The notes under the pieces: generated by a model
Database searches by the model: none
What the model saw: the letters and a program-made list of their open reading frames with translations, nothing else
Told to the model about the DNA's origin: nothing
Source: a candidate division WOR-1 bacterium RIFOXYB2_FULL_42_35
GTDB lineage: Bacteria > Margulisbacteria > WOR-1 > O2-12-FULL-45-9
Assembly (NCBI GenBank): GCA_001771545.1
Contig: MEUC01000011.1
Span: forward strand, 10,071 to 74,070
DNA length: 64,000 nucleotides
Reading direction: 5' to 3'
Position numbers and translations under genes: made by a program
Shown here: one piece after another, positions 20,490 through 40,286 of the stretch
Layout of the letters: every line of letters starts with the position of its first letter
Numbering within the stretch: the stretch's first letter is position 1

Positions 20490-20499
20490 ACCCCATTTT

Positions 20500-20527
20500 G
20501 AAACTTTTAGGCTATAATATTGTCTAA
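20500..20527 (+). promoter_or_regulatory. ECF-type promoter overlapping the sigma start codon, with a nested TATAAT
   Basis: GAAACT-N16-GTCTAA; last A is the A of the ATG at 20527; TATAAT at 20513-20518. Confidence 0.6.
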
Positions 20528-21108
20528 TGGATAGCAATGACCAAGAATTAATCAAACGCTTTCAACAAAACAATGGCTTAGCTGTCTTTGATCAATTGGT
20601 CATAAAGTATAAGGACATGGTTTTTAACCTGTGTTATCGCTTTATGGGCAATTATGATGATGCTAATGATTGTGCTCAGGATACCTTTTTAAAAGCTTTT
20701 AAAGGCTTGAAAAAGTTCCGGGCTGAGGCAAATTTCTCAACCTGGCTCTATCGGATTGCAGTTAATACTTGTAAGAATAAGCTGGCATCACTGACCTATC
20801 GCTTTAGCAAGATGTTAATAAGAATAGATCAGGCAAAATCAGAAGAAGAAAGAGGGACAATCAGGGAAGTCAGAGATGATTCAATGTCTCCAGTTAGCCT
20901 GTTAATGAAGAAAGAGACCGACAGATTAATTCAAAAAGCCATTGACTCGTTGCCTAAAGATCAAAAGATAGTCGTGGTTTTACGCGATGTTGAAGACCTG
21001 GCCTATGAGGAAATTGCCGCAATAACCGGCCATAATCTAGGCACAGTTAAATCAAAGCTGTTTCGGGCCAGGGAACAATTGAGAAATAAATTAAAAGGAC
21101 TGATTTAA
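20527..21108 (+). CDS. ECF RNA polymerase sigma factor (RpoE/SigW-like)
   Basis: DANDCAQDTFLKA, FSTWLYRIAVN and YEEIA...GTVKSKLFRAR. Confidence 0.96.
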   Translation: MDSNDQELIKRFQQNNGLAVFDQLVIKYKDMVFNLCYRFMGNYDDANDCAQDTFLKAFKGLKKFRAEANFSTWLYRIAVNTCKNKLASLTYRFSKMLIRIDQAKSEEERGTIREVRDDSMSPVSLLMKKETDRLIQKAIDSLPKDQKIVVVLRDVEDLAYEEIAAITGHNLGTVKSKLFRAREQLRNKLKGLI

Positions 21109-21756
21109 ATGGATGATAATAAATTAAAATCTTTAGAGTCACTAGAAAGAGTTAAAGCCCCGGCTAATTTTGTAGAACAAGTACGCTCTCGCTTGGAAAA
21201 GAAAAGTCTTTGGCAAAGGATCTTTTTACCATTACAGATAAAAATCCCTCTTCAGCTAGCTGGCACGCTGGTTACAGTACTATTAGTAACATTTATTTAT
21301 AATGCTTATCAACCCGAACAATTAATGGTTAGCAAAGAGAGATTAAAATCCGAGAAAACAGCTAAATTATCGGCCCCAAAAGCAACTGCCAGTGGTGCTG
21401 GGGCCAAGAGCAAAATTTATCAAGAGCCAATCGAACTGGCTTTGGTCATGGCAGCACCTGCTGCCCCAGAAAAATCAATGATGAGAGAAAGCGCAGCTAG
21501 TGGAATGTCACTTAATTTGGAGCTCGCAGACGAAAAAACAGCAGTTTCTCAAGCAGACCCCCTTCAAACGATTATCTTATCAGTTCAAGGCAAAGTTATC
21601 TCTAAAATTAATAATCAATATATTATTGAAGTTCCCCAGAATAGATATAAAGTTCTAGTCAATGAATTGGAACAACTAGGGAAGATAACTTCAAAAACCC
21701 CTCCTACGATAACAGACCAAGAGACCCTGCTGATTTATTTAACTGTTAAGAAATAA
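21109..21756 (+). CDS. single-TM anti-sigma factor (putative)
   Basis: Immediately follows the sigma gene; short cytoplasmic APANFVEQVRSRL segment, TM, periplasmic domain. Confidence 0.75.
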   Translation: MDDNKLKSLESLERVKAPANFVEQVRSRLEKKSLWQRIFLPLQIKIPLQLAGTLVTVLLVTFIYNAYQPEQLMVSKERLKSEKTAKLSAPKATASGAGAKSKIYQEPIELALVMAAPAAPEKSMMRESAASGMSLNLELADEKTAVSQADPLQTIILSVQGKVISKINNQYIIEVPQNRYKVLVNELEQLGKITSKTPPTITDQETLLIYLTVKK

Positions 21757-21759
21757 TCG

Positions 21760-21787
21760 GGAACTTTTCCTCTCCTCCCCTGTCTAA
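21760..21787 (+). promoter_or_regulatory. ECF-type promoter for the VIT-vWA gene
   Basis: GGAACT-N16-GTCTAA followed by SD AGGAGG. Confidence 0.85.
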
Positions 21788-21822
21788 CCACTAGACCGCA
21801 AGAAAAATAGGAGGAGAAGATT

Positions 21823-23952
21823 ATGCGAATTAGAAGTTTAGTTATAGGGATTGGTGTCGTGTTAGGCTTAATTTTAGGAGCCAACGTAGTCAAAGCAGAT
21901 GGTTTTATGATTGTGGAACCAAGACCTGTCTATCAACCTTGGTTAAAACAACCTACCCCCTTATCGGTCAAATATCATCATGTTACAGTCACGATTAATG
22001 ATAATATTGCTACTACCACAGTAGATGAAGTCTTTCTCAACGATTTTGATCATGAGATCGAAGGGACCTATATTTTCCCTTTGCCGGCAGAAGCAGCAGT
22101 TACCGAATTTGCCATGTATGTTAATGGTAAAAAAGTCAGCGGCCAGGTTTTAGATAAAGGCCAAGCCCGTAAGATCTATGAAAACATTGTCCGGCAGATG
22201 AAGGATCCAGCTCTTTTAGAATATGTGGGGAGGAACCTATTTAAGGCCAGCATTTACCCAATTCCGGCCAAAGGGGAGAAAAGAGTCCAATTAACTTATA
22301 AACAAGTACTTACCTACGACGCTGGCAGCTATAAATACGTTTATCCTCTGGACACAGAGAAATATTCGCCTAAACCAGTTAATGACGTAACAATCTCAAC
22401 AAAGATTAACTCAAAAATCCCCATTAAGAGTCTGTACTCGCCTAGCCACAATATTTCCAGCAAAATTGAAAGATACAAAGCCTCTGCTGGTTATGAAGCC
22501 CAAAATGTTAAACCCGATAAGAATTTTGTACTCTACTACACAGTTTCCGACCAAGATATTGGTTTAAGCTTACAAACTTACCAACAGAACAGTGAAGACG
22601 GCTATTTTATGATGTTGCTCTCCCCTGGTCAACTCAAGAGCAAGGCTAGTGCTAAAGATCTTATTTTTGTACTGGACACTTCTGGCAGTATGAGCGGAGA
22701 GAAGATCAGACAAGCTAAAGAAGCCTTGCGCTTTTGTTTAAGCAAATTAAATTCGGATGACCGTTTTAGTGTAATAGGTTTTGAAACCAACATAAATATT
22801 TATAAACAATCTCTAGTTTCTGCTAACGATAACAATATTAATAAGGCCTTGGAGTTCGTTGATCAATTTGAGGCCAGCGGCGGCACCAATATTAACGAAG
22901 CCCTGGTTAAAGCCTTAGGAATGATTAAATGGTCAACCAGGCCACGCATGATCGTCTTTTTAACCGACGGCGAACCAACCGAAGGGGTAACTGAGATGAA
23001 AGATATTATTGCCAATGTCAAAAACGCCAATAAAAACAAGGCTCGTCTCTTTGTTTTTGGTGTTGGTGATGATGTAAATACCCATCTTTTGGATAAGATC
23101 GCCGAAGACAATCGTGGGGCTTGTGAATATGTTGATCCAGGTGAAGATATTGAAAAGAGTGTTTCAACTTTTTATAGCAAGATTAATGAACCTGTTCTGG
23201 CTGATATTAAATTAGATTTTGGCGGCATCAGGATTTATGACCTCCAACCGAGAGTATTCCCGGATATTTTCAAGGGGACTCAGTTAGTCCTCTTGGGTCG
23301 CTACAACGGCGATGGCAACAGGAAAATAACCTTAACCGGTTATGTTAATGGCCGGAAGAAACAGTTTTTTTACGAAGCCAAATTTACCAGAGAAGACTCA
23401 AGCAACAACTTTATTCCTAGGCTATGGGCAACCAGAAAGATCGGATATCTAACCAGTGAAATCCGTTTAAGGGGAGAAAAGAAAGAGTTGATTGATGAGA
23501 TCATCAAACTCAGCAAAAAGCACGGAATTATGACCGAATACACCTCATATTTAGTCATGGAAAATGACCAGGATTACAAACGTTATGGTCTTAATGAAGC
23601 TATGGCTCCTAAGCTAAAAGAAGCCGGCAATAAATTTGCTCAAGCCATGAAAAGCTATACCGGCAGTGGGGCTGTTTCCAGCGCCAGAAACATTCAAGAC
23701 ATGCAACAAAAAGCCTTGCCAGCTGCTCCAGAGCTAGAGACAGTCAAATACGTTGGCAATAAAACTTTTTATCTTCAAGATCTGACTTGGACTGATTCAG
23801 AATACACGCAAGGAATGAAAACTATCAAGATTAAATATTTAAGCCAAGAATACTTTGCGCTCTTAAAGGCTAGTCCGGAATTGGGCAAGTATTTTGCTGT
23901 GGGAGAAAATATAATTGTGGAACTCAAAGGAACAGTTTACAAAATAATGTAG
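21823..23952 (+). CDS. secreted VIT + von Willebrand A domain protein
   Basis: Signal peptide, EGTYIFPLP VIT motif, MIDAS DTSGS..GGT..LTDG. Confidence 0.95.
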   Translation: MRIRSLVIGIGVVLGLILGANVVKADGFMIVEPRPVYQPWLKQPTPLSVKYHHVTVTINDNIATTTVDEVFLNDFDHEIEGTYIFPLPAEAAVTEFAMYVNGKKVSGQVLDKGQARKIYENIVRQMKDPALLEYVGRNLFKASIYPIPAKGEKRVQLTYKQVLTYDAGSYKYVYPLDTEKYSPKPVNDVTISTKINSKIPIKSLYSPSHNISSKIERYKASAGYEAQNVKPDKNFVLYYTVSDQDIGLSLQTYQQNSEDGYFMMLLSPGQLKSKASAKDLIFVLDTSGSMSGEKIRQAKEALRFCLSKLNSDDRFSVIGFETNINIYKQSLVSANDNNINKALEFVDQFEASGGTNINEALVKALGMIKWSTRPRMIVFLTDGEPTEGVTEMKDIIANVKNANKNKARLFVFGVGDDVNTHLLDKIAEDNRGACEYVDPGEDIEKSVSTFYSKINEPVLADIKLDFGGIRIYDLQPRVFPDIFKGTQLVLLGRYNGDGNRKITLTGYVNGRKKQFFYEAKFTREDSSNNFIPRLWATRKIGYLTSEIRLRGEKKELIDEIIKLSKKHGIMTEYTSYLVMENDQDYKRYGLNEAMAPKLKEAGNKFAQAMKSYTGSGAVSSARNIQDMQQKALPAAPELETVKYVGNKTFYLQDLTWTDSEYTQGMKTIKIKYLSQEYFALLKASPELGKYFAVGENIIVELKGTVYKIM

Positions 23953-23954
23953 AC

Positions 23955-24034
23955 CTCAGAAACTTAGTGACTTTGTGCCTTAGTGGTAAATAAAAAATAG
24001 CCGCAAAGGCACGAAGCCTCAAAGGGACACAAAG
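23955..24034. repeat. inverted array of degenerate 8-mers (CTTTGTG / CACAAAG type)
   Basis: cttagtgactttgtgccttagtgg ... caaaggcacgaag..acacaaagg between convergent genes. Confidence 0.65.
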
Positions 24035-24056
24035 GAAAAATCCGAATAGTTAAAAC

Positions 24057-24398
24057 CTACAGCACCGTCATCAAAACCCCACCAAATATGGTGGCTAACA
24101 GATCCCAGTTGTCCCACTTTTGCGCATAATACTGATCGAAAGCTTCGCGTAACAACCCAACTGTAGCAGCACTTAAGACCATTGTATTAGAATCTGCTCC
24201 ATGTTTATAAGCTCCAGCAGCTACAAAACCTCCCAAGAGAACATGTGCCGCCTTGTCAGAATACTGATCAAGTCGTCGCTTCAAATTTATACTTTGAACT
24301 TCAGAAGTTTGAGCCCAACATGTCCCTCCCATTAACAATAATAACAATATAACAATCCCCTTTATAACAATTAACTTCATAATAATTATTTTTCTCAT
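24057..24398 (-). CDS. hypothetical membrane protein
   Basis: Signal peptide; DKAAH..E..D..DLLAT..G pattern like VanZ/YfiM-type families. Confidence 0.7.
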   Translation of the reverse strand: MRKIIIMKLIVIKGIVILLLLLMGGTCWAQTSEVQSINLKRRLDQYSDKAAHVLLGGFVAAGAYKHGADSNTMVLSAATVGLLREAFDQYYAQKWDNWDLLATIFGGVLMTVL

Positions 24399-24622
24399 CT
24401 CCTACCTCCTAGATATTGGTTATGCAGTTATCCTATCATGATACTTATTCTTAGCAATAGAATTTTCAGACAAAAAATGCCTTTCTATCGAACGGCTAGT
24501 CTTACACTATTATATAGCTTTGTATCCCTTATGGCTCTAAGAAGATATTTAGATTTGTTTTGCCGAAAAGTGAAATCGCCCACCAATAATGCGGACATAG
24601 AAGTATAACAAGGAGATAAAAA

Positions 24623-26788
<2,166 letters not shown>

Positions 26789-26853
26789 TAATTTAAAAGA
26801 TTCTAAAGGCGTTCACTAGTTTTAGCCTCTAAATTCTGCTAAAATTACAATTG

Positions 26854-27651
26854 ATGCCTATTCAAGAGAAATGCCGAATCTTAGACCACCAGAAAGTTGC
26901 CCCTTTCCATTTTAAAATTACCCTTGTTTCTAAATATATCTCTTCACACGCAGAACCAGGCCAATTTGTTAACGTCCGCTGCTCACAAGATTACGATCCC
27001 CTACTTAGACGACCACTAGGAGTTCATAACGTTAACCCAGAAGAAGAAATCTTTGAATTGCTTTATGAGATCGTTGGCAAAGGGACAGAATTACTTTCCA
27101 AGCATCAAGTTGGACAGGAAATAGATATCCTTGGTCCTTTGGGGAACGGATTTGATATCAATAAAGACAAAAAGGTTGCTATTCTAGTTGCTGGCGGAAT
27201 GGGCGTTGCACCTCTGCTCTACTTAGCTAAATTCCTACGATCCACGATCCACGATCCACGATCAATCCACATCCTAATTGGCACTAAGACAAAAGAGCTG
27301 ATTCTTGCTGAAAAAGAATTTAAAACTTTAACAGATAACGTTATCGTTTCAACAGATGATGGATCTTACGGCAAAAAGGGTTTTGTTTCTGATGTCCTAC
27401 TTGAAACTTTGGACCCAAGAACCATTGATGCTTCAGCAACCATATACGCTTGTGGCCCCAAACCAATGCTCAAGGCCATTGCAGAAATTGCTTTCCAAAA
27501 GAAGATCGACTGCCAAGTTTCCATGGAAGCTAGAATGGCTTGCGGGATTGGCACTTGCTTGGGTTGTGTGATTAATACGACAAAAGGTTATCAAAAGGTT
27601 TGTGACGACGGCCCGGTTTTCGACGCAAAGGAGATTGTATGGACAAGCTAG
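26854..27651 (+). CDS. pyrK: dihydroorotate dehydrogenase electron transfer subunit
   Basis: LRRPL, GGMGVAP, CGP and MACGIGTCLGC..CDDGPVF motifs. Confidence 0.96.
   Translation: MPIQEKCRILDHQKVAPFHFKITLVSKYISSHAEPGQFVNVRCSQDYDPLLRRPLGVHNVNPEEEIFELLYEIVGKGTELLSKHQVGQEIDILGPLGNGFDINKDKKVAILVAGGMGVAPLLYLAKFLRSTIHDPRSIHILIGTKTKELILAEKEFKTLTDNVIVSTDDGSYGKKGFVSDVLLETLDPRTIDASATIYACGPKPMLKAIAEIAFQKKIDCQVSMEARMACGIGTCLGCVINTTKGYQKVCDDGPVFDAKEIVWTS
27235..27262 (+). repeat. 4 x 7-bp repeat (CCACGAT) inside pyrK
   Basis: ctacgat ccacgat ccacgat ccacgat, translated RSTIHDPRS. Confidence 0.9.
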
Positions 27652-28550
27652 CTATTGAACTCTGCGGTATCAAATTAAAGAACCCGGTCATGGTTGCCTC
27701 TGGCACTTTTGGTCACGGCGAAGAAGCAGCTAAGTTTGTTGATCTAGATAAACTTGGGGCAATCATCACCAAAACTATCACCCTAGAACCACGCCAAGGC
27801 AATAAACCACCACGAATCTGCGAAACAGCTTCTGGCATGCTCAACTCCATTGGCCTACAAAACAAAGGAGTTAAGGATTTCTTGGAAAACCGTCTACCTA
27901 CACTGGCCAAATATAAAACCCCTGTAATTGTTAACATTGCCGGGGAATCAGCTAAAGAGTTTGAAGAGCTGACCAAGATATTAAATAAAGAACCGTTAGT
28001 TAAAGGGATTGAAGTTAACATTTCCTGTCCTAACGTGTCTAAGGGTGGAATGCTCTTCTGCTTTGATCCCAGGGCAACCAGAGAATTAGTTGCCACTGTT
28101 AGGAAAGCAACTAGTCTTCCGGTAATTGTTAAATTGTCACCCAACGTTACAGACATCGCTTTAATCGCTAAAGAAGCAGAAAATGCCGGGGCTGATGTAA
28201 TTTCTTTAATCAATACTCTCTGGGGCATGGCCATCGATACCAATACCCACAAACCAAAACTGGGCAACATCACTGGCGGCCTCTCTGGTCCTGCCATTAA
28301 ACCAATTGCCATCAGAATGGTTTGGCAGGTTGCTCAAGCTGTTAAAATCCCGATCATCGGAGTTGGAGGAATTATGACCGGAGCAGATGCAATTGAATTT
28401 TTCCTAGCCGGCGCTTCCGCAGTTCAGGTTGGTACAGCTAATTTTGTTGATACACAGGCACCTGTAAGGATTGTCGAAGAAATCAAAGAATATTTAGATT
28501 CCCACAATATCAGCCACTACAAAGAATTGGTTGGAAAAGTAACTGCGTAG
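27639..28550 (+). CDS. pyrD: dihydroorotate dehydrogenase (family 1B) catalytic subunit
   Basis: ASGTFG, NSIGLQN, NISCPN, KLSPN and GGLSG motifs. Confidence 0.97.
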   Translation: MDKLAIELCGIKLKNPVMVASGTFGHGEEAAKFVDLDKLGAIITKTITLEPRQGNKPPRICETASGMLNSIGLQNKGVKDFLENRLPTLAKYKTPVIVNIAGESAKEFEELTKILNKEPLVKGIEVNISCPNVSKGGMLFCFDPRATRELVATVRKATSLPVIVKLSPNVTDIALIAKEAENAGADVISLINTLWGMAIDTNTHKPKLGNITGGLSGPAIKPIAIRMVWQVAQAVKIPIIGVGGIMTGADAIEFFLAGASAVQVGTANFVDTQAPVRIVEEIKEYLDSHNISHYKELVGKVTA

Positions 28551-28568
28551 CTATTCCCCAAACTTAGG

Positions 28569-28664
28569 CTAATCCGGCGGTTGAAACTTACCTTTGTACA
28601 TCAGAATAAATATCACTACAATGATGAAGATTATTAGAACTAGAACTGCTTGTGATTCGGTCAT
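28569..28664 (-). CDS. 31-aa single-TM small protein (not in ORF track)
   Basis: MTESQAVLVLIIFIIVVIFILMYKGKFQPPD*; AAGGA upstream. Confidence 0.45.
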   Translation of the reverse strand: MTESQAVLVLIIFIIVVIFILMYKGKFQPPD

Positions 28665-28682
28665 GGTTTTATGGTCCTTAGA

Positions 28683-28815: not shown

Positions 28816-31627
28816 AAAGAACTCTCTTCAAAAACATCCCCGTATAACTCTTTGAATTATTGCTAACCTGTTCAGGAGTCCCCTCCGCCACCACAAAGCC
28901 CCCCTCATCCCCACCACCTGGTCCTAAGTCAATAATATGATCCGCAGTTTTGATTACATCTAAATTATGTTCAATCACAATTAAAGTATTGCCAGTTGAG
29001 ACTAAGCGTTTAAGTACCTCCAATAACTTCTTAATATCAGCAAAATGTAAGCCAGTGGTTGGTTCGTCTAGAAGATATAATGTTCTGCCTGTTGAGCGAG
29101 TTGCCAACTCTGTGGCCAATTTAATCCTCTGGGCCTCACCACCAGACAAAGTAGTCGCTGGTTGGCCTAATTTTACATAACTTAAACCGACATCATTTAA
29201 AGTCTCTAACTTTCGCCTAATTTGGGGAATATTCTCGAACAAATCCAAAGCCTCTTCAACTGTCATATCCAACACATCATAAATGGACTTACCACGATAA
29301 TGAACTTCCAATGTTTCTCGATCATAACGCTTACCCTTGCAAACATCACAAGGCACATAGACATCCGGCAAGAAATGCATTTCAATCTTGACTAAGCCAT
29401 CACCGGAACAAGCTTCGCAACGTCCCCCTTTGACATTGAAGGAAAAACGACCCGGCTTGTAACCCCTGATTTTAGCCTCATTGGTCATAGTAAATAAGTC
29501 ACGGATATGAGTAAAAACTCCCGTATAAGTTGCTGGGTTAGAACGTGGAGTGCGACCAATCGGCGTTTGATCAATAATCACAACTTTATCGATATGCTCA
29601 ATGCCATCAATTCGATCATGTATCCCGGCCTTATCCAAAGCACGATAAAACTTTTTAGCTAAGGCACGATACAAAATATCATTAACCAAGGAACTTTTAC
29701 CGGAACCGGAAACACCGGTCACACAAGTAAAGGTTCCCAAAGGAAAAGAGACATTAACTTTCTTTAAGTTATTATGTTCCGCTTTAACAATTTTAAGAAA
29801 TTTGCCGTTACCGGGCTTGCGTTCAACTGGAACCTCAATCTTTTCCTTGCCAGAAAGAAATTTTCCTGTAATTGAAGCTGCTGTCTTTTCAATCTGCGCT
29901 ACTGTTCCGCTGGCTACAATCTCCCCCCCATGCCTCCCTGCCCCCGGCCCAATATCAACCAGATGGTCTGCCAGCCGCATCGTTTCTTCATCATGCTCTA
30001 CTACTATTATAGTATTACCCAAATCCCTTAAACGGAACAAAGTCTCAATTAAGCGTTTATTATCACGCTGGTGCAAACCAATTGAAGGCTCGTCTAAGAT
30101 ATAGAGCACTCCGACTAAGCCAGAGCCGACTTGGGTGGCCAAACGAGTCCTCTGTGCTTCTCCGCCAGAAAGTGTGGCAGATTGGCGGTCAAGGGTGACG
30201 TAATCCAACCCAACATCAACTAAAAACATTAAACGTGCGGTTAGCTCTTTAACAATTTGTTTGGCAATAACTGTTTCCCGCTCTGTGAGCTGCAAATCAG
30301 TTAAAAAAGCCATCACTTTGTTGATTGATAAAGCTGAAATTTTGGCAATTGATTTGCCGGCAATTGTCACTGCTAAACTTTCCGGCCGCAGTCTCTGCCC
30401 ATGACAAACAGGACAGCTGACACTACTCATGTAGCGATAAAGACTAAAACGCACATTTTCTGATTTGGTCTCATAATAGCGCCGTTTAAGCCAGTTAATT
30501 ATGCCTTCGTAAGAGCCCTCATGCTCCCAATAGCTGCGATCCATACGATGTTTAAACATAATTGGTTTATCGGAACCATAAAACAAAACCTTAAGTTGTT
30601 TTTTGTTTAGTTTCTTAACCGGGGTAAAAATATCAAAACCATAGGTTTCCCCCACAGATTCCAATTTTTGGATAAAATATGAAGCTGCCTCACCCCAACA
30701 AGCGATGGCTCCATCGGCAATAGTCAGGCTTTTATCAGGAATGACCAGATCAGGATCAAATTGCAGCTTATCTCCCAACCCCTTACACTCTGGGCAAGCG
30801 CCATAGGGACTATTAAAAGAAAAGATCCTGGGAGTGATTTCATCAAGGGAAAGGCTACAACTGGCACAAGCAAACTTTTCACTATAACTCTTCGGCTTAG
30901 CCCCTTTTTTCTCGCTTAAAATCTCAACCACGCCATTACCAAAGCGCAAAGCTGTTTCTACTGATTCGTTTAAACGTTTTTTGTTTGAGGTTTTGACAAC
31001 TAAGCGATCAATTACTATTTCAATATTATGTTTCAGTTTCTTGTCTAAAACCGGAACTTCGGCAATTTCATAGACCTTGCCATCAACCCGAGCTCGAATA
31101 AAACCGTCTTTTTGGATATCAGCAAAAAGTGTTTTATACTCCCCCTTACGTCCACGGATAACCGGTGCAAGGATTTGGATTTTCTCCCCAGCTGGCAATT
31201 GAAAAATCTGATCAACAATCTGCTGTGGAGTTTGCTTTTCGATCTTTTTCCCACATTTAGGACAGTGCGGAATACCAATATTAGCAAAGAGGAGTCTTAG
31301 ATAATCATAAATCTCTGTGACAGTCCCAACAGTTGATCTTGGATTTCTGGGTGGAGATTTTTGGTCAATAGAAATAGCCGGAGATAAGCCTTCAATTGAA
31401 TCAACATCGGGCTTTTGCATTTGTTCTAAAAATTGTCGAGCGTAAGCAGAAAGAGATTCAACGTAGCGACGCTGGCCTTCAGCATAAACAGTGTCAAAGG
31501 CTAGTGATGATTTACCTGAACCAGATAGACCAGTAAAGACAATAAATTTATTGCGCGGAAGTTCTAAACTAACGTCTTTTAGGTTATGCTCGCGGGCACC
31601 TTTGATGATGATTTTGTCTGAGTTCAT
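28814..31627 (-). CDS. uvrA: excinuclease ABC subunit A
   Basis: Two ABC ATPase domains ([18 protein letters not shown]), zinc fingers, LSGGEAQR twice. Confidence 0.99.
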
Positions 31628-31703: not shown

Positions 31704-31949
31704 ATGAAAAAACTACACTATTTCACAGCAATCTGCTCTGCCCTGGTTGTTGGGTTGGGTCAAATTATTGAGGGTGAAAGCAAAAAAGGTCTTCTGCTCC
31801 TGTTGGTTTTTTACTTTGCTCTGCCTGCTCTGACCTATTTAGCCTTATTAACTGGTGGCTCCCTCCCTCTTTACATTTGGGGACTAACAATTGTGGCTGG
31901 CTTAATTATTTGGACCTATAGTGTTGGGGAGGCCCTTTTTAAATCATGA
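31704..31949 (+). CDS. small membrane protein
   Basis: SALVVGLGQI..G..KKG pattern; ATGA overlap with the next gene. Confidence 0.7.
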   Translation: MKKLHYFTAICSALVVGLGQIIEGESKKGLLLLLVFYFALPALTYLALLTGGSLPLYIWGLTIVAGLIIWTYSVGEALFKS

Positions 31950-33073
31950 GAAGATCCTTCAAACTATTTACCATTTTTAATATTCCGATTGAGATAAATA
32001 TCAGCTGGTTCATTATTCTCAGCTTGATTGTCTTTACGCTGGCTCGAGGGTATTTCCCTTATACCAATCCAGAACTTTCAACTACTAGCCATTGGTTGAT
32101 GGCGCTAATTGCTGCGCTGCTACTATTTGCCTCACTTTTAGCCCATGAAATGGCCCATTCCTTAGTAGCCATAAAACATCAGCTGCCAATTCATGGCATA
32201 ACTTTATTTGTTTTTGGCGGTGTGGCACAGCTGGAAAAAGAACCGGACTCTCCCGCTGTTGAATTTAGAATGGCCATCGCTGGCCCAATTATGAGTTTTT
32301 CTTTGGCGGTATTGTTTTTTAGCTTAACCAAAACTTTCTACAATTTAGGCTTGCCTTCCCCTATCTTAGCCATTACCAATTATCTTTTTATGCTCAATTT
32401 GGTGGTAGGGATGTTTAACCTTATCCCTGGCTTTCCGCTTGATGGTGGTCGAGTGTTGCGTTCCATACTCTGGGCCTGGTTCAAAGATTTAAGAAGGGCG
32501 ACTAAAATTGCCAGTGCATTCGGCAAAACATTTGCTTTTGTTTTAATTGCCTTTGGTTTGTTTAATTTGTTTTCCGGGGCTTTTGTTTCCGGCATCTGGT
32601 TTATTTTTATCGGCTTATTCTTGCATGAAGCAGCTGGATCAAGCTATCGGCAAGTTGCCATGAAAAAGCTTTTAAGCGGAACAAAAGTAGCAGCGATGAT
32701 GACCAAGAATGTTATAACAGTTCCTGCTGAAATCACTTTAGATAAACTGGTTGACGATTACTTTTTTAAATATCGGCACGCCACTTTCCCAATCATGACA
32801 GATGATAATATTATTGGACTGGTAACTTTTCATGACATCAAAGAAGTAACCAAAGAAAAGTGGTCAACCACAACGGCACAGGACATCATGATTCCACTAA
32901 TTCATGATTTTGTGATTGACGCCCAAGCTGATGTCATGGAAGCCATGCCAATCTTAGCCAGGAACGGCCTGGGTCGCGCACTTATTATCGAAAATAAAAA
33001 ACTGATTGGTATCCTCTCGCAAAAAGATATCCTGCAATTATTTAAGTTTAAGTCGGCGATTGGTGGGAAATAA
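31946..33073 (+). CDS. site-2 protease (M50) with CBS pair
   Basis: HEMAH and NLIPGFPLDGG motifs; C-terminal CBS domains. Confidence 0.95.
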   Translation: MRRSFKLFTIFNIPIEINISWFIILSLIVFTLARGYFPYTNPELSTTSHWLMALIAALLLFASLLAHEMAHSLVAIKHQLPIHGITLFVFGGVAQLEKEPDSPAVEFRMAIAGPIMSFSLAVLFFSLTKTFYNLGLPSPILAITNYLFMLNLVVGMFNLIPGFPLDGGRVLRSILWAWFKDLRRATKIASAFGKTFAFVLIAFGLFNLFSGAFVSGIWFIFIGLFLHEAAGSSYRQVAMKKLLSGTKVAAMMTKNVITVPAEITLDKLVDDYFFKYRHATFPIMTDDNIIGLVTFHDIKEVTKEKWSTTTAQDIMIPLIHDFVIDAQADVMEAMPILARNGLGRALIIENKKLIGILSQKDILQLFKFKSAIGGK

Positions 33074-33081
33074 TCTCTACT

Positions 33082-33645
33082 ATGGAGAAACTCATCTGGC
33101 AACCAGGGACAATGGTCTACCCCGCTCCAGCAGTGTTAGTTAGCTGTGGGGATAAGCCAGAAAACTACAATATCATTACCATTGCTTGGACAGGCACAAT
33201 TTGTTCTGACCCAGCAATGACCTATGTTTCCATCCGTCCCTCACGACATTCATATGCACTCATTAAGAAGAACAAAGAGTTTGTCATTAATTTGACAACG
33301 AAGCGATTGGCTTTTGCGACCGACTTTTGCGGAGTAAAATCTGGTCGAGATATAAATAAGTTTGAGCGGCTAAAACTAACTCCTCTCAAAGGAGAAAAGG
33401 TTGCTGCCCCTTTGATCGAAGAGAGCCCCATTAACATTGAATGCCAAGTCACAGAAATAAAATCTTTGGGATCACATGATATGTTTCTAGCTAAGGTTTT
33501 GTGTATCCACGCCAGTAAAGAGTTTATGAATAAAGCGGGCAAGTTTGACCTGCGTAAAACTGACCCAATTTGTTATTCACATGGCAACTATTATGCGCTG
33601 GGGAAATGCCTGGGACACTTTGGATATTCAATTAAGAAACGTTAG
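33082..33645 (+). CDS. flavin reductase family protein
   Basis: YPAPAVLVS, CGVKSGRDINKF and GSHDMF motifs. Confidence 0.93.
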   Translation: MEKLIWQPGTMVYPAPAVLVSCGDKPENYNIITIAWTGTICSDPAMTYVSIRPSRHSYALIKKNKEFVINLTTKRLAFATDFCGVKSGRDINKFERLKLTPLKGEKVAAPLIEESPINIECQVTEIKSLGSHDMFLAKVLCIHASKEFMNKAGKFDLRKTDPICYSHGNYYALGKCLGHFGYSIKKR

Positions 33646-33676
33646 CCTTTACCACTTACACCGTACACTTTAAACC

Positions 33677-34648
33677 TTAAACATTCCCCATCACACTATC
33701 AATCAACTCCAACAACTCTTCATAACTTTTAACTTCTGTAACCCTGCGACGGACTTCATCTTTTTTTAAATACCACATGGCAATCTTGCGCATAAAACCG
33801 ATGTTCCCCCTAGGCCTTCTTTGTTTATACTTTTGCACATAAGCAAGGTGCTTTTTTAAAACCGCTATCTTTAGTTCTAAACTAACTTGATCCGCAACAG
33901 TTCCTGTTGCCAAATACTGTTCAATATTTTTAAATATCCAAGGATCACCGAATGAACCCCGGGCAACCAAAACACCATCACAACCGGTGCGATCAACCAT
34001 CTCCTTAGCCTTTTTCGGAGAGAAAACATTACCAGAACCAAAAACCGGAATAGTAACATTATATTTTATGGCCTTGATAGCCTCATAATCAATTTCCCCG
34101 GTATAAGCCTGCTTTTGCGTGCGACCATGAACAAAAAGCGCTGCTGCCCCACTCTGCTGGCATTTTTTAGCAATCTCGACAACACGAGCAACATTCCGCT
34201 CATCAAAGCCAGTCCGCAACTTAACTGTAATTGGCAAAGAGATAGCTTGCGTTAAGCTACTGATAATTCTATAAAGATCCTCTGGTCGAGAAAGAAGATA
34301 GGCCCCAGCTTTTTTCTTGAGGACTTTTTTAGCCGGACAGGCAGCATTAATATCAATAAAAGTAGGCTGAACAATTTCTAGCAGTTTACGAGCAGCTTCA
34401 ACCATTTTATCGGTACCAGAACCAAGCAGCTGCGCGGCAATTGGCTGATCATCCGGATGACTTTTGAGAATCTCAATGTTTTTACTGGCCCCATAGATCA
34501 AGGCATTAGCATCAAGCATCTCAAAAAAACCAAAGCCTGCCCCAAACTCACGCGCAATCAGCCGAAAAGCCAAGTCGGCACAACCAGCTAAGGGAGACAG
34601 AAAAACGTTGGTCTCAATTTTTTTATTACCGATTTTTATACTTACCAA
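33677..34648 (-). CDS. dusB: tRNA dihydrouridine synthase (DusB-like)
   Basis: IDINAACP, TVKLRTG, VHGRT and ARG motifs. Confidence 0.9.
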   Translation of the reverse strand: MVSIKIGNKKIETNVFLSPLAGCADLAFRLIAREFGAGFGFFEMLDANALIYGASKNIEILKSHPDDQPIAAQLLGSGTDKMVEAARKLLEIVQPTFIDINAACPAKKVLKKKAGAYLLSRPEDLYRIISSLTQAISLPITVKLRTGFDERNVARVVEIAKKCQQSGAAALFVHGRTQKQAYTGEIDYEAIKAIKYNVTIPVFGSGNVFSPKKAKEMVDRTGCDGVLVARGSFGDPWIFKNIEQYLATGTVADQVSLELKIAVLKKHLAYVQKYKQRRPRGNIGFMRKIAMWYLKKDEVRRRVTEVKSYEELLELIDSVMGNV

Positions 34649-34649
34649 A

Positions 34650-35621
34650 TTAAAACCTCACGGCCAAGCCGATATTGTGGTTCACAACCCCAGCACTATT
34701 CCCGGCAATAACATAAGCTCCCCAGTAACCCAGTTCCCAACCATCATTAAGTTTATATCCATAACCTAAAGTCATAAAGCCCGGGGTTGTTACCGATTTA
34801 TAATTATAGTACCCTGCTCGAAAACTACTGCGATAAAAACGCTGACCAGGTTGCGGCGAATATTCAAAACCACCAGAATAATATGGTCCACCGTATAAAG
34901 CCAATAAATCATACACCCCGGCATTGACAACTAAACCCTGAAGTTTCCCCTTGGGGCTCCAAGCTAGAGCAGGTCGAACATTAGGCGACTGCAAAATCCC
35001 CTGGCAAACCTTTATTTGTAAACTGGAATTATCCGGGGATGTGTACTCACCAGACAAAAGCCAAAAGTTTTCAATATGCACACCAAAAGACCACTCAGGA
35101 TGAAAACGCCAAAGATAATCCAAATCAATTACTCTTTCAAGATAATCCAGACGAACCAGCTGGCTTTGATAAATGCCATAGCCTTCTGTTCGATAAACAA
35201 CATAACCGACACCCACCGACATAGCTTCGAACCAGGGCAAACTAAAAGCCCGACCATAAGAAAGATAATATGAACCACCCCCACTCCAGGAAGCTGCTAA
35301 ACTCAATCCATTCCCTTGATTAATTTTTTGGGCATAGTTGATTGAATCATAGTAAGTGTTGCCGGAACGCGGTTCAGTATTAAAATAACCGGCAGGACTC
35401 CAAGCTTGACTGGTTAAAACTAGTTGCTGCTCACCGTCTCGCCAATTTTCCAACTGCGCAGCCCCGGCCCTATTCCAATAAGCCAGATTAGCATCATCAG
35501 CAACAGCAGTAAAAATACCCCCCATGGCCATGGGCCGAAAACCCCAACAGGCAAAAGAAGGAGAACTGATTACAAAAAGACACGTCAAAAATAAAAGATA
35601 TTTTTTTATCATTTTTTTCAT
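34650..35621 (-). CDS. outer-membrane barrel (FadL/PorV-like N-terminal motif)
   Basis: RPMAMGGIFTAVADDANLAYWN; signal peptide; terminal Phe. Confidence 0.75.
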   Translation of the reverse strand: MKKMIKKYLLFLTCLFVISSPSFACWGFRPMAMGGIFTAVADDANLAYWNRAGAAQLENWRDGEQQLVLTSQAWSPAGYFNTEPRSGNTYYDSINYAQKINQGNGLSLAASWSGGGSYYLSYGRAFSLPWFEAMSVGVGYVVYRTEGYGIYQSQLVRLDYLERVIDLDYLWRFHPEWSFGVHIENFWLLSGEYTSPDNSSLQIKVCQGILQSPNVRPALAWSPKGKLQGLVVNAGVYDLLALYGGPYYSGGFEYSPQPGQRFYRSSFRAGYYNYKSVTTPGFMTLGYGYKLNDGWELGYWGAYVIAGNSAGVVNHNIGLAVRF

Positions 35622-35677
35622 CCCCCTCTCTTCCTTAAGAGAGGGGGAGGTGTGCCAATCATAGATGGGGGTGAGTT
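35622..35677. repeat. REP-like GC hairpin
   Basis: CCCCCTCTCTT-cctt-AAGAGAGGGGG (11-bp perfect stem) followed by GGGGGTGAG. Confidence 0.7.
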
Positions 35678-35683
35678 AGTAAA

Positions 35684-35845
35684 TTACTTGTCGTTTTCTG
35701 CTACAAACTTTTTAATCTCTTCGATATTTTCCACGATCTTTTTGGCTTTTGACAAACCAAAAGAAAATGGGAATTTATCATTCTCATCATTTTTAATTAC
35801 TATCATCGGCCGGCCCTTAAACTCTGATCTTTCAATAATCGCCAT
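35684..35845 (-). CDS. 53-aa small protein (not in ORF track)
   Basis: MAIIERSEFKGRPMIVIKNDENDKFPFSFGLSKAKKIVENIEEIKKFVAENDK*; SD GGGAGG and TATAAT upstream. Confidence 0.8.
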   Translation of the reverse strand: MAIIERSEFKGRPMIVIKNDENDKFPFSFGLSKAKKIVENIEEIKKFVAENDK

Positions 35846-35933
35846 TGTTACCCTCCCTTTTTATTTAGTCTTGGCATTATAACATAGAGAACAACAAGAT
35901 AAAAAAACTTCCTTGAAAATTCCGGCGGAATAC

Positions 35934-37895
35934 TTATTCGTAACGCAAAGCAACAATTGGCAAGAGCTTGGCCGCCCGCCAGGCTGGCCAGAGACCAAAG
36001 ACTACTCCAACTAAAACCGAGAAAGTAAAAGCCAGGATGATCGAACCTAAAGAAATTAAAACATTCCAACCGGCAAAGGTAGCCAAGCTAAAACTAATCA
36101 ACGAACCAAAGCCAATCCCCACAATCCCGCCAAAAAGACAGATTAAAATCGACTCAACCAAAAACTGGACCATAATATCACTTTTCTCCGCTCCCAAAGC
36201 CTTGCGCAGGCCTATTTCATGAGTCCGCTCCATCACCATCACCAGCATGATATTCATAATCCCAATACCACCAACCAGTAAGCTGACCGCAGCAATCGCC
36301 CCTAAAAGATAGGCCAAGGTTGAGATCATTTCGCCGGCTGCCTTTTGAATCTCCGCCATATTACGAACTTCAATACTATCGCTTTGAGACTCTGGTAAGC
36401 GATGCAGTTTCACCAGCTGCACGATGATTTCATCCTGAACATACTGCATTGAATTTAGATCACTAACCTGAACGTCAAAGTAGCTAATATAATCACTGCC
36501 TAACAAACGATACATCGCTGTTTTTATCGGAATAACTATTTGATCATCAACATTACGCCAGCCAGAGACCCCTTTTTCCGGCATCACACCAATAACATTA
36601 AAGCTGACCTTATTAATGCGAATCCATTTCCCCACAGGATTTTCGGCACCAAACAATTCAGTTGCCACCGTTTTACCAAGCACAGCAACTTTGGCTCGGC
36701 TGGCAGCCTCTGCGGCTGTAAAAAACCGGCCAATATCCGGCACAGATTCACGCACATACTGAAAATCGTAATTGGAACCAACAATTGAAGTATTCCAGTT
36801 ACGATTTTGATAAACCGCCTGTCCTCGACCGCTAACATACGGCGCCACCTTTTCAACTGATTCAATTTGCTCGATCACAGCTAAATCAGCAAAGGTAAAA
36901 CGAGTTACAGAATCTGAGCCCAGGGAAATTCCATGACTGCGCTGTGAAGTTCGCACCATCAATAAGTTTGTGCCTAAACCGGAGAGTGTCTTCTCCATAG
37001 CCTTTTGCGCCCCTGTGCCTAAGGCCAACATGGTGATAACTGCAGCTACGCCAATCATCACCCCTAAAATAGAAAGGAAAGAGCGTAATTTATTATTTAG
37101 CAGAGATAAAGTTGCTTCATAGCAATAATCCTTAAGGCGCCCAAAAGAAAAAACACTTTTCCCTTTCTTATCTCCCCAATTAAAGACAGGAACAGAAGTT
37201 TTTATCCCGGGTTGTTTTCGATCGTCAGATAAAATACTGCCATCACGCAAAGTGATAATTCGTGAGGCATGGGCAGCCACATCGTGCTCATGCGTAACCA
37301 TGATAATCGTATTGCCTTGGGCATTAAGTTCTTTTAATAAATCAATGATTTCTTGCGACGATTTTGAGTCGAGGTTCCCGGTTGGTTCATCCGCCAGGAT
37401 AACTAACGGCTTATTAGCTAAGGCACGGGCAATGGCCACTCGCTGCTGCTGCCCACCAGAAAGTTCATTAGGCCTATGATGTAAGCGGTCTTCCAAACCA
37501 ATTTTCTTTAATACTTCGACACTGCGCTGACGGTTCTCTTTTGAGGCTTCGCCGGCATAGATAAAAGGCAACATGGTATTATCGGTAACATTGAGTTTGG
37601 GCAGGAGATTGAACATTTGAAAAATAAAACCAAAAAAGCGGTTGCGCAAACGGGCATACTCATTTTCAGTTAACCCGGTAATATCCTTGCCCAGCAATTT
37701 ATACTCACCGTTATCGGCATTGTCCAGCAGACCTAAAATCGCCAGCAGGGTTGACTTACCGGAACCGGAAGCCCCCATAATCGCCACGAATTCGCCTGCC
37801 TCAATCTTAAGGGAAACGCCCTGTAAGGCATGGACAGGCAGGTTGCCGCCAATATAGTAAGTCTTAACAATAGAATTGAGTTCAATTAAAGACAT
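35934..37895 (-). CDS. macB: MacB-type fused ABC ATPase-permease
   Basis: [16 protein letters not shown] and [22 protein letters not shown] motifs. Confidence 0.95.
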
Positions 37896-38887
37896 TAGTT
37901 TTTCTTGGTAAAGGGATTAATTGGCCCCCGACGACCAGTCTCCGGAAAAAGTTCCTTGGTCAGCTTCGAAGTCGGAACAACCAACGTTTGACCATCAGCA
38001 AGCCCGGAGAGCACCTCAAGATCAGTAGTATTTTCTAATCCAACTGATATTTTAACGGCTTTAATCTCTTTGGATTCTTGATCACCAGTAAAAACATAAG
38101 CCTGCCCCTTGACCTTTTTGACAACTTTGAGAGGAACCAGCAAAGCATTGGCTTTCTCATTCAAAACAAAATCCACGGTAGCGCTCATCCCCGACCTAAA
38201 AAACGGGGGCACTTCATTTGGAATAACATCAACCGTATAAACGGTGACATTACTTATTTCTTCGGCTTCATAAGCAATGTGGGAAACATAACCGGGAATT
38301 TTCTTACCCTGATAAGCGTCAAGTTCAATGGCAACTTTTTGTTTAAGCTTGATCTGACCAATATCAGTTTCATCTACCTGAGCTTCAACGATTAAACGAT
38401 CAGCCATAACCAAGATGGGATCAGCTGCTGTTACAGATTGTCCCGGCTCAATATCCCTTTTAACAATAAAACCGTTGAGGGGTGCAATGATTGGCGCCGG
38501 CTTATAAATATCCTGCCAATGTTTATATTCATCTTCTCCTTGAGACCTGGCAGCATCCAACAAAGTTGCCCTCTCACTGGAGCTCATCCAGGCTAAAACC
38601 TGTCCAGTCCAAACCTTTTGTCCTTCTGTGACTAAAACACTGTCAAGCCGTCCGGCAATTGGCGGTTTTATTTCTACACGATTTCTAGGCAAAACAATCC
38701 CTGTCGAAGGCAGGGTTGCCAAAATATTGCCCCGTTTAACTTTAACGAATTTGAGAGGCTCTTCACTCTTGCCAGCACAACCAAACAATAAAAGAACCAA
38801 TCCCAAAACAAAAAAAGTCAGAAACTTTGTCTTAAAATAATTAATTCCATAATTTTGATCTTTGATTTTTGATCTTTGATTTTTCAT
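37895..38887 (-). CDS. macA: MacA-type periplasmic adaptor (lipoprotein-like signal)
   Basis: LLFGC, IIAPLNG, VDETDI and FRSGMSA motifs. Confidence 0.88.
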   Translation of the reverse strand: MKNQRSKIKDQNYGINYFKTKFLTFFVLGLVLLLFGCAGKSEEPLKFVKVKRGNILATLPSTGIVLPRNRVEIKPPIAGRLDSVLVTEGQKVWTGQVLAWMSSSERATLLDAARSQGEDEYKHWQDIYKPAPIIAPLNGFIVKRDIEPGQSVTAADPILVMADRLIVEAQVDETDIGQIKLKQKVAIELDAYQGKKIPGYVSHIAYEAEEISNVTVYTVDVIPNEVPPFFRSGMSATVDFVLNEKANALLVPLKVVKKVKGQAYVFTGDQESKEIKAVKISVGLENTTDLEVLSGLADGQTLVVPTSKLTKELFPETGRRGPINPFTKKN

Positions 38888-40113
38888 TTTTTAGTCCCTC
38901 CATAAGCTTTATACCAGCTCGCTTCAGCCAAATAGGCAGCCTTGCGATAGGTTAGCAGGTTGTTTTGAGCCGCAACATAATCGTTTTCTATTCTATCCCA
39001 ATCATCATAATTGATTAATCCATTTAAGTATTTTGCACGAGCAATTATTGCCCGCTCCTTAGCCGCAGCCAGTGAAACAGTTTTAACCTCTAAAGCTTCT
39101 AGGGCATCACTAAAATCACTATAAGCTTTTTGAACACTATAGCGCAGATCATTTTCAGACTGCTTAAAATCCTGTTCGGCCTTTTCCAGTTTTAAGTTAT
39201 AGATCATGGCATCAGCGATATTGCTACCACCAGGAAAGAAAGAATAAGACAGACTTAGTGTCCAACTACTGTTTTCTGAATTTGGCGGCCAGCTGTTACC
39301 ACGATTACTATAATTAGCACCTAAAGAAACTGAAGGGAGAAATCCGGCAATAGTGGCGTTCTTGGCAATTTGGGCAGATTCCAACTGATATTTAGCCATA
39401 ACATAGCTCGGTGACCTTTTAACCAGCTGATCAAAATTATCTTGACTAACAGCTTCTACGGAACCCAAATCCTGCAAATCATCAACATTTTGTTCAATTA
39501 GTTGCGACAGATTAAGTTTGGCTAAGGCCAGATCCCTTTTGGCTGCAGCAAAATCATATTCCGCCTGCGCTTGATCAGCTTGAGTCCGCATCAAATTACC
39601 CTTATCTTCCTTGCCACTTTTATAGCGCAAAGCAATTAGGCGCGCGTTGCTAATCCGTTGTTCCAGGATTTTTTCTAGGATAGCAACATTCTCCTGGGCA
39701 AAAAATAGGTCTAAGTAAGCTGAACGAATATTATAAGAAAACTCGGCTTCAGCCTTCTTTAAACTGGACTCATAATATTTTAGGTCGGCGTAGGCTGACT
39801 GCACATTGTAATAATTGTCTAGGCCGTCAAAAATAGATTGCGTGGCGCTTAAACCATAAGAATAAGTTCTCGCCGCAGCCCCAAAGCTGGCACTGGTTGA
39901 TAAATTAGCAGACAATTGCGGAAGATAACTTGAATAAGCTTTTTTATATGTCCACTGATACGATTCCAGTTGTTTCTGGGCACTTTTTAAATCGTGGTTT
40001 TTTTCGCGGGCTAAAGATTCTACTTCCGACCAATTCAAAGCAAAAACAACAGAGGAACAAACAACCATTGCTGTAATTAAAAAAAACTTCAGATGTTGCT
40101 TCGCATCACACAT
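38884..40113 (-). CDS. TolC family outer-membrane efflux protein
   Basis: Two OEP repeats (YLPQLS, FLPSVS; RYKSG, KYLNG). Confidence 0.92.
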   Translation of the reverse strand: MCDAKQHLKFFLITAMVVCSSVVFALNWSEVESLAREKNHDLKSAQKQLESYQWTYKKAYSSYLPQLSANLSTSASFGAAARTYSYGLSATQSIFDGLDNYYNVQSAYADLKYYESSLKKAEAEFSYNIRSAYLDLFFAQENVAILEKILEQRISNARLIALRYKSGKEDKGNLMRTQADQAQAEYDFAAAKRDLALAKLNLSQLIEQNVDDLQDLGSVEAVSQDNFDQLVKRSPSYVMAKYQLESAQIAKNATIAGFLPSVSLGANYSNRGNSWPPNSENSSWTLSLSYSFFPGGSNIADAMIYNLKLEKAEQDFKQSENDLRYSVQKAYSDFSDALEALEVKTVSLAAAKERAIIARAKYLNGLINYDDWDRIENDYVAAQNNLLTYRKAAYLAEASWYKAYGGTKK

Positions 40114-40164
40114 AACACATTACTCTTTACTCATTACTTATCAGTCTTTCCACTCATCATTATA

Positions 40165-40193
40165 TTAGACATCCGAGAAAAAGGAAAGGTTCC
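40165..40193 (-). promoter_or_regulatory. ECF-type promoter for tolC-macA-macB
   Basis: Minus strand GGAACC-N17-GTCTAA; same TGTCTAA -10 as at 20521 and 21781. Confidence 0.75.
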
Positions 40194-40282: not shown

Positions 40283-40286
40283 TTTT

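Follow-up and report, generated by a model that had tools for sequence, protein, structure and literature searches.

A stretch of 64,000 nucleotides (nt) of contig MEUC01000011.1 from the candidate division WOR-1 bacterium RIFOXYB2_FULL_42_35, here called the window, was found to carry the gene for a sigma factor of the extracytoplasmic function (ECF) type together with three copies of one promoter-like motif, designated P1, P2 and P3. Judged on sequence, this is a real ECF sigma system with a confirmed motif, one secure target, the gene for a secreted protein with VIT and vWA domains (VIT-vWA), and one probable target, the exporter genes tolC-macA-macB. The reading put forward here, to which a probability of about 0.7 is given, is that a sigma factor resembling group ECF25 reads GGAAC(T/C)TT-N12/13-TGTCTAA, that P2 serves the VIT-vWA gene and P3 probably the exporter, and that P1 is placed on the start codon of the sigma gene.

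Three motif positions had been claimed in an earlier note on this DNA, and all were recovered, each on the strand given below with its score from the position weight matrix (PWM) described further on:

20500..20527, + strand: P1, GAAACTTTTAGGCTATAATATTGTCTAA, of the form GAAACTTTT-N12-TGTCTAA (-35 GAAAC, -10 TGTCTAA); 21.1 bits, rank 2
21760..21787, + strand: P2, GGAACTTTTCCTCTCCTCCCCTGTCTAA, of the form GGAACTTTT-N12-TGTCTAA; 26.4 bits, rank 1, score reached in 0 of 300 null windows; equivalents in 8 related loci
40165..40193, - strand (read from 40193 to 40165): P3, GGAACCTTTCCTTTTTCTCGGATGTCTAA, of the form GGAACCTTT-N13-TGTCTAA; 19.7 bits, rank 3, score reached in 26 of 300 null windows

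The lengths of 28, 28 and 29 nt agree with the unequal spacers that had also been claimed, the spacer of P3 being 1 nt longer. When both strands of the window were scanned, the pattern AAC[CT]TT.{12,15}GTCTAA matched exactly three times, at P1, P2 and P3, and AAC[CT]TT-N12/13-TGTCTAA likewise gave three matches, every one closely 5' of a correctly oriented gene. The halves of the motif are frequent when taken alone (GTCTAA 24 times, G[GA]AAC[CT]TT 21 times), and the three sites have in common the two blocks only, their spacer sequences being unrelated. The strict pattern GAACYTTT-N10-15-TGTCTAA matched P2 and P3, with 0.00 matches expected from 100 dinucleotide shuffles. The loose pattern GAAC-N14-20-GTCTAA gave two matches against 0.43 expected, with two or more in 9 of the 100 shuffles, and by itself is not rare. 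P1 is missed by the patterns that require GAAC because it has GAAAC and not GGAAC.

The PWM was built independently from the sigma-upstream sites of 17 related loci, the window being left out, and it placed the three sites first, second and third in the window, the fourth-best match having 16.7 bits. As a null, the maximum score was taken in each of 300 first-order-Markov windows of 64 kb; 26.4 bits (P2) was reached in none of these, 21.1 bits (P1) in 12 and 19.7 bits (P3) in 26. On this grading P2 is secure, P1 is good and P3 is marginal on score alone. The fourth match, at 31594-31621 on the + strand (GGGCACCTTT…TTGTCTGA, 16.7 bits), was not counted, its score lying inside the null range; it falls within the 5' end of uvrA (opposite strand), upstream of an 81-amino acid (aa) open reading frame (ORF) and of a gene for a protein with M50 and CBS domains.

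That the motif is no promoter but a repeated element, or an operator at which some DNA-binding protein sits, is barely credible. The -35 of P3 is indeed overlapped by a perfect inverted repeat of 9 nt, but two conserved blocks at a fixed spacing of the 16/17-nt type, with unconserved spacers, an orientation always toward a gene and a form equal to that of known ECF promoters, argue for promoters, and an Rfam scan of 18000-46000 gave no family match except one tRNA.

The motif was then found to be a property of the sigma family. Related loci came from a contig search with the sigma alignment, in which at least 600 stretches matched and at least 584 were confirmed as relatives; 80 loci were kept. 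The best sigma identity among the matches listed was 60%, and the window's own genome and an 80%-identical relative were not among them. Motif counts refer to the 35 best related loci (569,639 nt), a strong site being one of at least 17.5 bits within 200 nt upstream of the sigma gene. Such a site is present in 22 of the 35 loci (16 used in PWM training, 6 not), weaker sites of 14-16.4 bits and the same look in 6 further loci, and none in 7. The whole sequence holds 36 sites of at least 17.5 bits, 35 of them on the sigma strand; 22 of these 35 are the sigma-upstream sites and most others lie directly after the anti-sigma gene. This concentration at the sigma and anti-sigma genes argues that the motif is the family's own promoter type and not a peculiarity of the window, and the comparison supports it as the cognate promoter type of this sigma family. 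In L011, L027, L028 and L031 (Spirochaete/Leptospirales labels) the -35 block is GATC and not GAAC, and the junction of TGTCTAA with ATG is unchanged. The sole strong site on the opposite strand among the 35 loci (L005:9848-9876, - strand, 19.2 bits) faces a divergent 452-aa gene beside sigma, which is possibly a divergent target.

The genes at P1 and P2 are arranged as follows, the first and second genes downstream of sigma being called +1 and +2:

18684-20489: bipA/typA, upstream of the sigma gene
20527..21108, + strand: ECF sigma factor, 193 aa (Pfam Sigma70_r2 and Sigma70_r4_2; TIGR02937)
21109..21756, + strand: +1, single-pass membrane protein, 215 aa (alignment; weak DUF2275 match; complex model)
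21823..23952, + strand: +2, secreted VIT-vWA protein, 709 aa (Pfam VIT and VWA; ortholog at the same position in locus L003)

The sigma factor has Sigma70_r2 at residues 24-88 and Sigma70_r4_2 at residues 133-185, without region 3 (Pfam), and scored 109.7 bits against TIGR02937 (sigma70-ECF; cut-off 42.9). With sigma-2 and sigma-4 only and about 190 aa, it is an ECF (group 4) sigma factor. At E <= 0.001, 6175 relatives were found among 6307 candidates, with 55-80% identical proteins among them; thousands at 55-65% identity come from metagenome-assembled genomes (MAGs) labelled Omnitrophica/Omnitrophota, Spirochaetes, Elusimicrobiota, Deltaproteobacteria and others, and the best named relatives are Omnitrophota MAGs. 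The best curated match is RpoE (TIGR02939), with 169.2 bits below the cut-off of 236.15, and no RseA, RseB or RseC gene occurs downstream, where +1 encodes a DUF2275-like single-pass protein and +2 the VIT-vWA protein. The label 'RpoE-type' used in the earlier note is thus given up, and the description of group ECF25 fits better. In the part of the ECF classification consulted (Casas-Pastor et al. 2021, PMC7826278), ECF25 promoters have GGAAC at -35 and GTC at -10, +1 is a single-pass zinc anti-sigma with DUF4349, and the group spreads over Deltaproteobacteria, Spirochaetes, Fibrobacteres and Nitrospirae; its studied member is SigG/SapG of Nostoc punctiforme, with a role in envelope stress. 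The window promoters have this GGAAC/GTC form, and the sigma factor fits an ECF25-like assignment by the group's written description.

Since GGAAC/GTC is common to several ECF groups, all three sites might be read by some other ECF sigma factor encoded elsewhere in the genome. The same part of the classification predicts motifs like GGAACTT/GTCTAA for ECF02, ECF111, ECF281 and ECF25, and the genome was seen only over 64 kb. Against this, the motif travels with the orthologs of this sigma factor across phylum labels, 5' of sigma and after the anti-sigma gene, and the 64-kb window has no second sigma gene; such an explanation is regarded as improbable.

P2 is the secure member of the three. Its predicted start near 21793 leaves a leader of about 30 nt with AGGAGG. 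The encoded protein has PF08487 at residues 50-159 and PF00092 at residues 279-431, that is a VIT followed by a vWA domain with the DxSxS metal site (DTSGS, of metal ion-dependent adhesion site type), behind an N-terminal signal-like segment; its score for the sortase/exosortase class (TIGR03788, 331.5 bits) is below the cut-off of 551.65 and no hydrophobic C-terminal anchor was seen by eye. Eight related loci (L003, L004, L006, L007, L009, L013, L030 and L032) have another promoter of this type after the anti-sigma gene and ahead of a VIT-vWA or vWA gene, whose start codon stands 31-43 nt from the -10 behind a GGAG-type sequence, as in the window. The VIT-vWA protein of L003, at the same position, is 54% identical over 694 residues. 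Shared promoters and gene order therefore indicate conservation, under several phylum labels, of one module composed of sigma, anti-sigma, promoter and VIT-vWA, and the claim that the VIT-vWA gene belongs to the regulon is borne out by these eight loci. P2 would accordingly be expected to drive a leadered mRNA for the secreted VIT-vWA protein, the putative conserved core target of the family, in a sigma-dependent manner.

L003, L007 and L030 have a second gene for a vWA partner; the window has none. Our literature search found no link between ECF sigma factors and VIT-vWA proteins, and the part of the ECF classification supplement covered holds no relevant VIT passage. The spacers of sigma-proximal promoters are A-rich and those of target promoters pyrimidine-rich (CCTCC-like). 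A role of the latter as anti-Shine-Dalgarno sequences in read-through RNA was considered and dropped (shuffle p 0.08-0.99 over 9 sites; at P3, the tenth site, no Shine-Dalgarno-type start was found). Around P2, UCUCCUCC pairs with GGAGGAGA in the minimum-energy fold with a z-score of only -1.07, and an RNA that begins at the predicted start is open. The spacer/Shine-Dalgarno pairing regions are 21765-21822 in the window, L006:12427-12490, L009:11660-11722 and L030:1894-1948.

P1 differs in its placement. It takes up the 37 bp that separate bipA from the sigma gene, a gap that is otherwise empty; its -10 TGTCTAA occupies 20521-20527 and the sigma ATG 20527-20529, the final A of the -10 being the A of the ATG. 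An earlier sigma start is excluded because of an in-frame TAA at 20515, and the N-terminus is supported by alignment with relatives. In the 22 loci with strong sites the start codon follows the -10 at 0 nt in 14, at -1 nt in 2, at 4-5 nt in 4 (L006, L009, L010 and L022, all with Desulfobacterota-type labels) and at 23 nt in 2, and in the 6 loci with weaker sites the distance is also 0 or -1 nt. Abutment or overlap of -10 and start codon is thus shared by the window with 22 of the 35 related loci (16 strong, 6 weaker), under Omnitrophota, Spirochaetota, Elusimicrobiota and Nitrospirota labels, and the swap of ATG for GTG at the abutting position between L021 and L024 argues that the start codon is real.

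In the open complex of Mycobacterium tuberculosis sigma-H the -10 GTT stands at -11 to -9 and the bubble extends from -9 to +2, according to the part of the structural report consulted (PMC6411747). By this geometry P1 would start about 6 nt past the TAA, near 20533 in sigma codon 3, and its transcripts would be without the sigma AUG. Simple positive autoregulation is therefore not predicted by the anatomy, and the term 'autoregulatory' in the earlier note is not supported here, as the -10 overlaps the sigma ATG. The placement of P1 is conserved and unexplained, and it argues against plain autoregulation.

The surroundings of P1 suggest another arrangement. The sigma ATG has no Shine-Dalgarno sequence; neither the 37-bp gap nor the final 700 bases of bipA contain a terminator-like site, and a consensus scan of the + strand from 19220 to 21091, including the end of bipA, disclosed no housekeeping promoter. 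In most related loci the gene upstream of sigma is on the same strand, 29-155 nt away. The +1 gene has, in the window as in relatives, an AAGG/GGAG-like sequence 9-14 nt before its start, formed by the conserved C-terminal Lys-Gly codons of sigma. Full-length sigma may thus be translated from read-through of the upstream gene, and transcripts begun at P1 would encode the +1 membrane partner, for whose translation a separate Shine-Dalgarno-like sequence is present, so that P1 would close a negative and not a positive feedback loop. This division, with read-through as the source of sigma and P1 as the supply of the +1 protein, is held with modest confidence. A bolder version is tentative and rather doubtful: the fusion of promoter and start codon would be a conserved regulatory device, in which sigma activity feeds only the membrane antagonist, sigma itself comes only from upstream read-through, and a shift of 4-5 nt is an evolutionary toggle between negative and positive feedback. 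The literature search found nothing on leaderless or start-codon-overlapping ECF promoters.

Several points weigh against this view of P1. All start sites are taken from the geometry of another sigma factor (sigma-H); 15 of the 17 training sites have GGAAC where P1 has GAAAC; and no gap separates the sigma gene from +1 (TAAATG), normally a sign of translational coupling, which would limit +1 synthesis where sigma is untranslated. Moreover, the distance of 4-5 nt in L006, L009, L010 and L022 is that of a leaderless, positively autoregulated mRNA, so that autoregulation may after all be what the family is designed for. P1 could then be a case of classical positive autoregulation of the kind found in most ECF systems, its sigma mRNA being translatable and either leaderless or begun at an unusual place. 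The retention of P1 upstream of sigma in relatives and the lack of a Shine-Dalgarno sequence at the sigma ATG, as expected of a leaderless message, are in line with this, and TAATAT at -12 to -7 from the window ATG could serve as a housekeeping-type -10 for a leaderless start. However, an ATG 0 or -1 nt after GTCTAA would put a start at its A 5-6 nt too near the -10 in the geometry described in the consulted part of PMC6411747, the A-rich, -10-like spacer is limited to Omnitrophota-type loci and not found in Nitrospirota/Spirochaetota ones, and L001-type genes have no later in-frame start codon in the N-terminal region. Classical autoregulation is therefore considered unlikely, and the supply of sigma by read-through is preferred.

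Two further ideas on the start codon were rejected. Translational coupling of sigma to an ORF ending at the -10 TAA would need such an ORF, and a long one exists only in L001, with mostly none or a few codons elsewhere. An NNT second codon with a purine might have indicated that transcription starts 7 nt past the -10, but this was discarded as evidence because the pattern tracks the ATG even in the loci with 4-5 nt.

The product of the +1 gene, whose ATG directly follows the sigma stop codon, is probably the anti-sigma factor. In 25 of 31 related loci the first downstream ORF has a zf-HC2 domain at its N-terminus; the window protein has no zf-HC2 match, its first 40 residues contain neither His nor Cys, and the N-terminal HxxxCxxC domain that defines zinc-binding anti-sigma factors is absent. 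Its alignment with the zinc anti-sigmas begins at the helix VKAPxxF and continues across the membrane segment into the conserved C-terminal domain. About 45 N-terminal residues of the orthologs are missing from the window protein and from those of L001 (8947-9588) and L008 (10527-11174), and a homolog search with the +1 protein gave a single relative, 67% identical and equally short. In L001 and L008 sigma also lacks the first N-terminal helix.

When sigma was modelled together with residues 1-48 of the +1 protein, our own alignments being used, the complex scored 0.78, whereas the best of three controls had 0.01. Among solved complexes 58 of 80 come up to this mark, among mismatched pairs 2 of 110. 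The runs share at least 89% of contacts, the partner has a predicted local distance difference test score of at least 71, and the modelled contacts are with sigma residues 18-58 and 128-193. As sigma/anti-sigma complexes have already been solved, the pass may reflect likeness to these and not binding. The +1 protein is the ortholog of the family's zinc-finger anti-sigma and, judged by the model, probably an anti-sigma itself: the zinc finger is lost, yet the protein is modelled between sigma-2 and sigma-4 and probably still holds sigma at the membrane. The term 'anti-sigma' in the earlier note needs correction in that the zinc-finger domain of the orthologs is absent, even though the model favours binding.

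P3 precedes an operon on the - strand:

38884..40113, - strand: TolC-family outer membrane channel, 409 aa (Pfam OEP; TIGR01844 below cut-off)
37895..38887, - strand: MacA-like periplasmic adaptor, 330 aa (HlyD_3 and HlyD_D23; TIGR01730, 123.9 bits against a cut-off of 94.9)
35934..37895, - strand: MacB-type ABC exporter, 653 aa (Pfam ABC_tran, MacB_PCD and FtsX)

By Pfam, the three adjacent genes encode the parts of a MacB-type tripartite exporter (fused ATPase/MacB core/FtsX, adaptor and OEP channel), the MacB protein scoring 502.6 bits against the equivalog NF007826, below its cut-off of 966. What lifts P3 above its marginal score is its place, in the only intergenic stretch 5' of tolC, correctly oriented and with 51 nt to the ATG. 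When the proteins of the window were compared with the 80 loci by local tblastn, full-length MacB was found in L069 (52% identical), L002 (50%) and L060 (49%), each with macA and tolC beside macB, and L052 has a tolC-like gene and an ABC ATPase. The order in L060:7019-12537 is sigma-tolC-macA-macB-zinc anti-sigma, on one strand with gaps of at most 100 nt, behind AAACCTTT-N-TGTCTAT, and that in L069:9992-15675 is sigma, zinc anti-sigma, a small periplasmic protein and then tolC-macA-macB. L052 has ECF-type GGAACAAA-N-CGTTTAA sites before its tolC-like/adaptor/ABC cluster and before the anti-sigma gene. The sigma factors of these three loci are 39-40% identical to that of the window; in L002:12776-18949 the orthologous sigma (57% identical) is followed by the exporter at a distance of 4.3 kb. 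The ECF sigma genes beside tolC-macAB in the four loci argue that ECF control of this exporter type recurs. In L002 and L069 a zinc anti-sigma and a small Lys/Glu-rich periplasmic protein are inserted before tolC.

On this evidence P3 would be the promoter of tolC-macA-macB, a claim in which we have reasonable, if not firm, confidence. The alternative is that P3 is a chance match, that the operon is under a MarR-type regulator or a housekeeping promoter, and that the regulon comprises sigma, +1 and VIT-vWA only. The points that tell for it are the 26 of 300 null windows that reach the score of P3, its spacer, 1 nt longer than in P1 and P2, the divergent marR gene beside it with an operator-like 21-nt inverted repeat, and the operon of L002, which comes after another ECF sigma gene (a paralog, 29% identity) and is equipped with a sigma-70-like promoter of its own (11 of 12 positions). 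Besides the position and strand of P3 and the sigma genes next to tolC-macAB in the four loci, it is countered by the agreement of P3 with P2 at GGAAC, TTT and TGTCTAA and by the existence of 29-nt sites, the length of P3, in relatives such as L019, L021, L024 and L029. A chance match is a possibility that deserves weight but is not favoured, and ECF control through P3 is retained as the probable state. The earlier proposal of a sigma circuit linking the VIT-vWA protein to MacAB-TolC thus stands for the VIT-vWA target and is plausible for MacAB-TolC.

On the other side of the gap P3 is back to back with a sigma-70-like site at 40236-40264, of the divergent marR operon, in which an AcrB-type pump comes after a marR-type ORF. 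This promoter is overlapped by an imperfect inverted repeat of 21 nt (TTAACCGGTTAA core, 40242-40286), which is likely to be the MarR operator. The 9-nt inverted repeat AAAAAGGAA/TTCCTTTTT spans 40178-40198, centred on the -35 of P3. At 40287-42173 on the + strand the MarR-type ORF runs in frame and stop-free into an outer-membrane efflux protein that carries a signal-like segment (…KKTCAIVTIALLCSGAVFA…) of its own; either the two genes are fused or overlap, or the sequence contains an error.

The earlier note had also offered an M50 protein as a candidate anti-sigma protease. Site-2 proteases of the RseP/RasP type combine an M50 domain with one or more PDZ domains. The ORF at 31946-33073 encodes an M50 domain with two CBS domains and no PDZ (Pfam), which is not the RseP/RasP composition, and the only motif-like site upstream of it scores within the null range; nothing ties this gene to the circuit, and a site-2 protease of the PDZ type was not found in the window. 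Downstream of the VIT-vWA gene, 24623-26788 (+ strand) encodes a 721-aa protein of no family; its low-confidence Atlas model resembles an SGNH/GDSL hydrolase (template modelling scores 0.40/0.64) followed by parts like an outer-membrane beta-barrel, which is a lead only. The remainder of the window consists of ordinary chromosomal housekeeping genes, and Pfam and NCBIfam bear out the gene calls.

Small regulons under an ECF sigma factor are textbook matter, and the system is ordinary in kind. Its interest lies in giving an ECF sigma family widespread among uncultured phyla a promoter code that can be tested and its first regulon members, and in the tie of this family to a recurrent, uncharacterised secreted VIT-vWA partner, which points to a surface or periplasmic role of bacterial VIT-vWA proteins under envelope-stress control. 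The link to MacAB-TolC, if true, would mean that an export pump has been recruited into an envelope-stress response, and a promoter on the start codon, if it works as read here, would be an unusual feedback design for ECF systems.

Among known systems, ECF25 is like that of the window in its GGAAC/GTC promoter form, wide taxonomic spread and role at the cell envelope, and unlike it in the zinc finger, which the window +1 protein lacks; the part of the ECF25 text covered mentions no VIT-vWA or MacAB context and no abutment of -10 and start codon. A vWA protein genetically tied to an ECF sigma factor also occurs, in the part of PMC7826278 consulted, in ECF289 and ECF226, with DUF3520-vWA anti-sigmas, and in ECF28, with vWA in its context. 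There the vWA domain belongs to the proposed anti-sigma or to the context, whereas here it is in a separate secreted VIT-vWA protein with its own promoter. SigR of Streptomyces coelicolor has two promoters that give two sigma isoforms, the induced transcript encoding a longer, unstable sigma (PMC4921905). It resembles the window system as an ECF sigma factor whose own sigma-dependent promoter gives a product other than that of the constitutive promoter, and differs in that the induced transcript of the window would lack the sigma start codon altogether.

MacAB-TolC of Escherichia coli has the same three parts and the same domain order in MacB as the window exporter, which differs in a MacB below the equivalog cut-off and in a gene order with tolC first. 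To our knowledge, control by an ECF sigma factor is not part of the E. coli system.

The promoter of E. coli RpoE (ECF02) has GAACTTT at -35 and GTCT at -10 in the same part of PMC7826278. RpoE-RseA-RseB-RseC is thus like the window system in a near-identical promoter form and in an envelope-stress sigma with a membrane anti-sigma; it is unlike it in that the window sigma scores below the RpoE cut-off and the window holds neither RseA, RseB or RseC nor a PDZ-type site-2 protease. For a promoter that feeds only the antagonist, the nearest precedent would be the sigma-E-dependent promoter inside E. coli rpoE, which serves rseABC.

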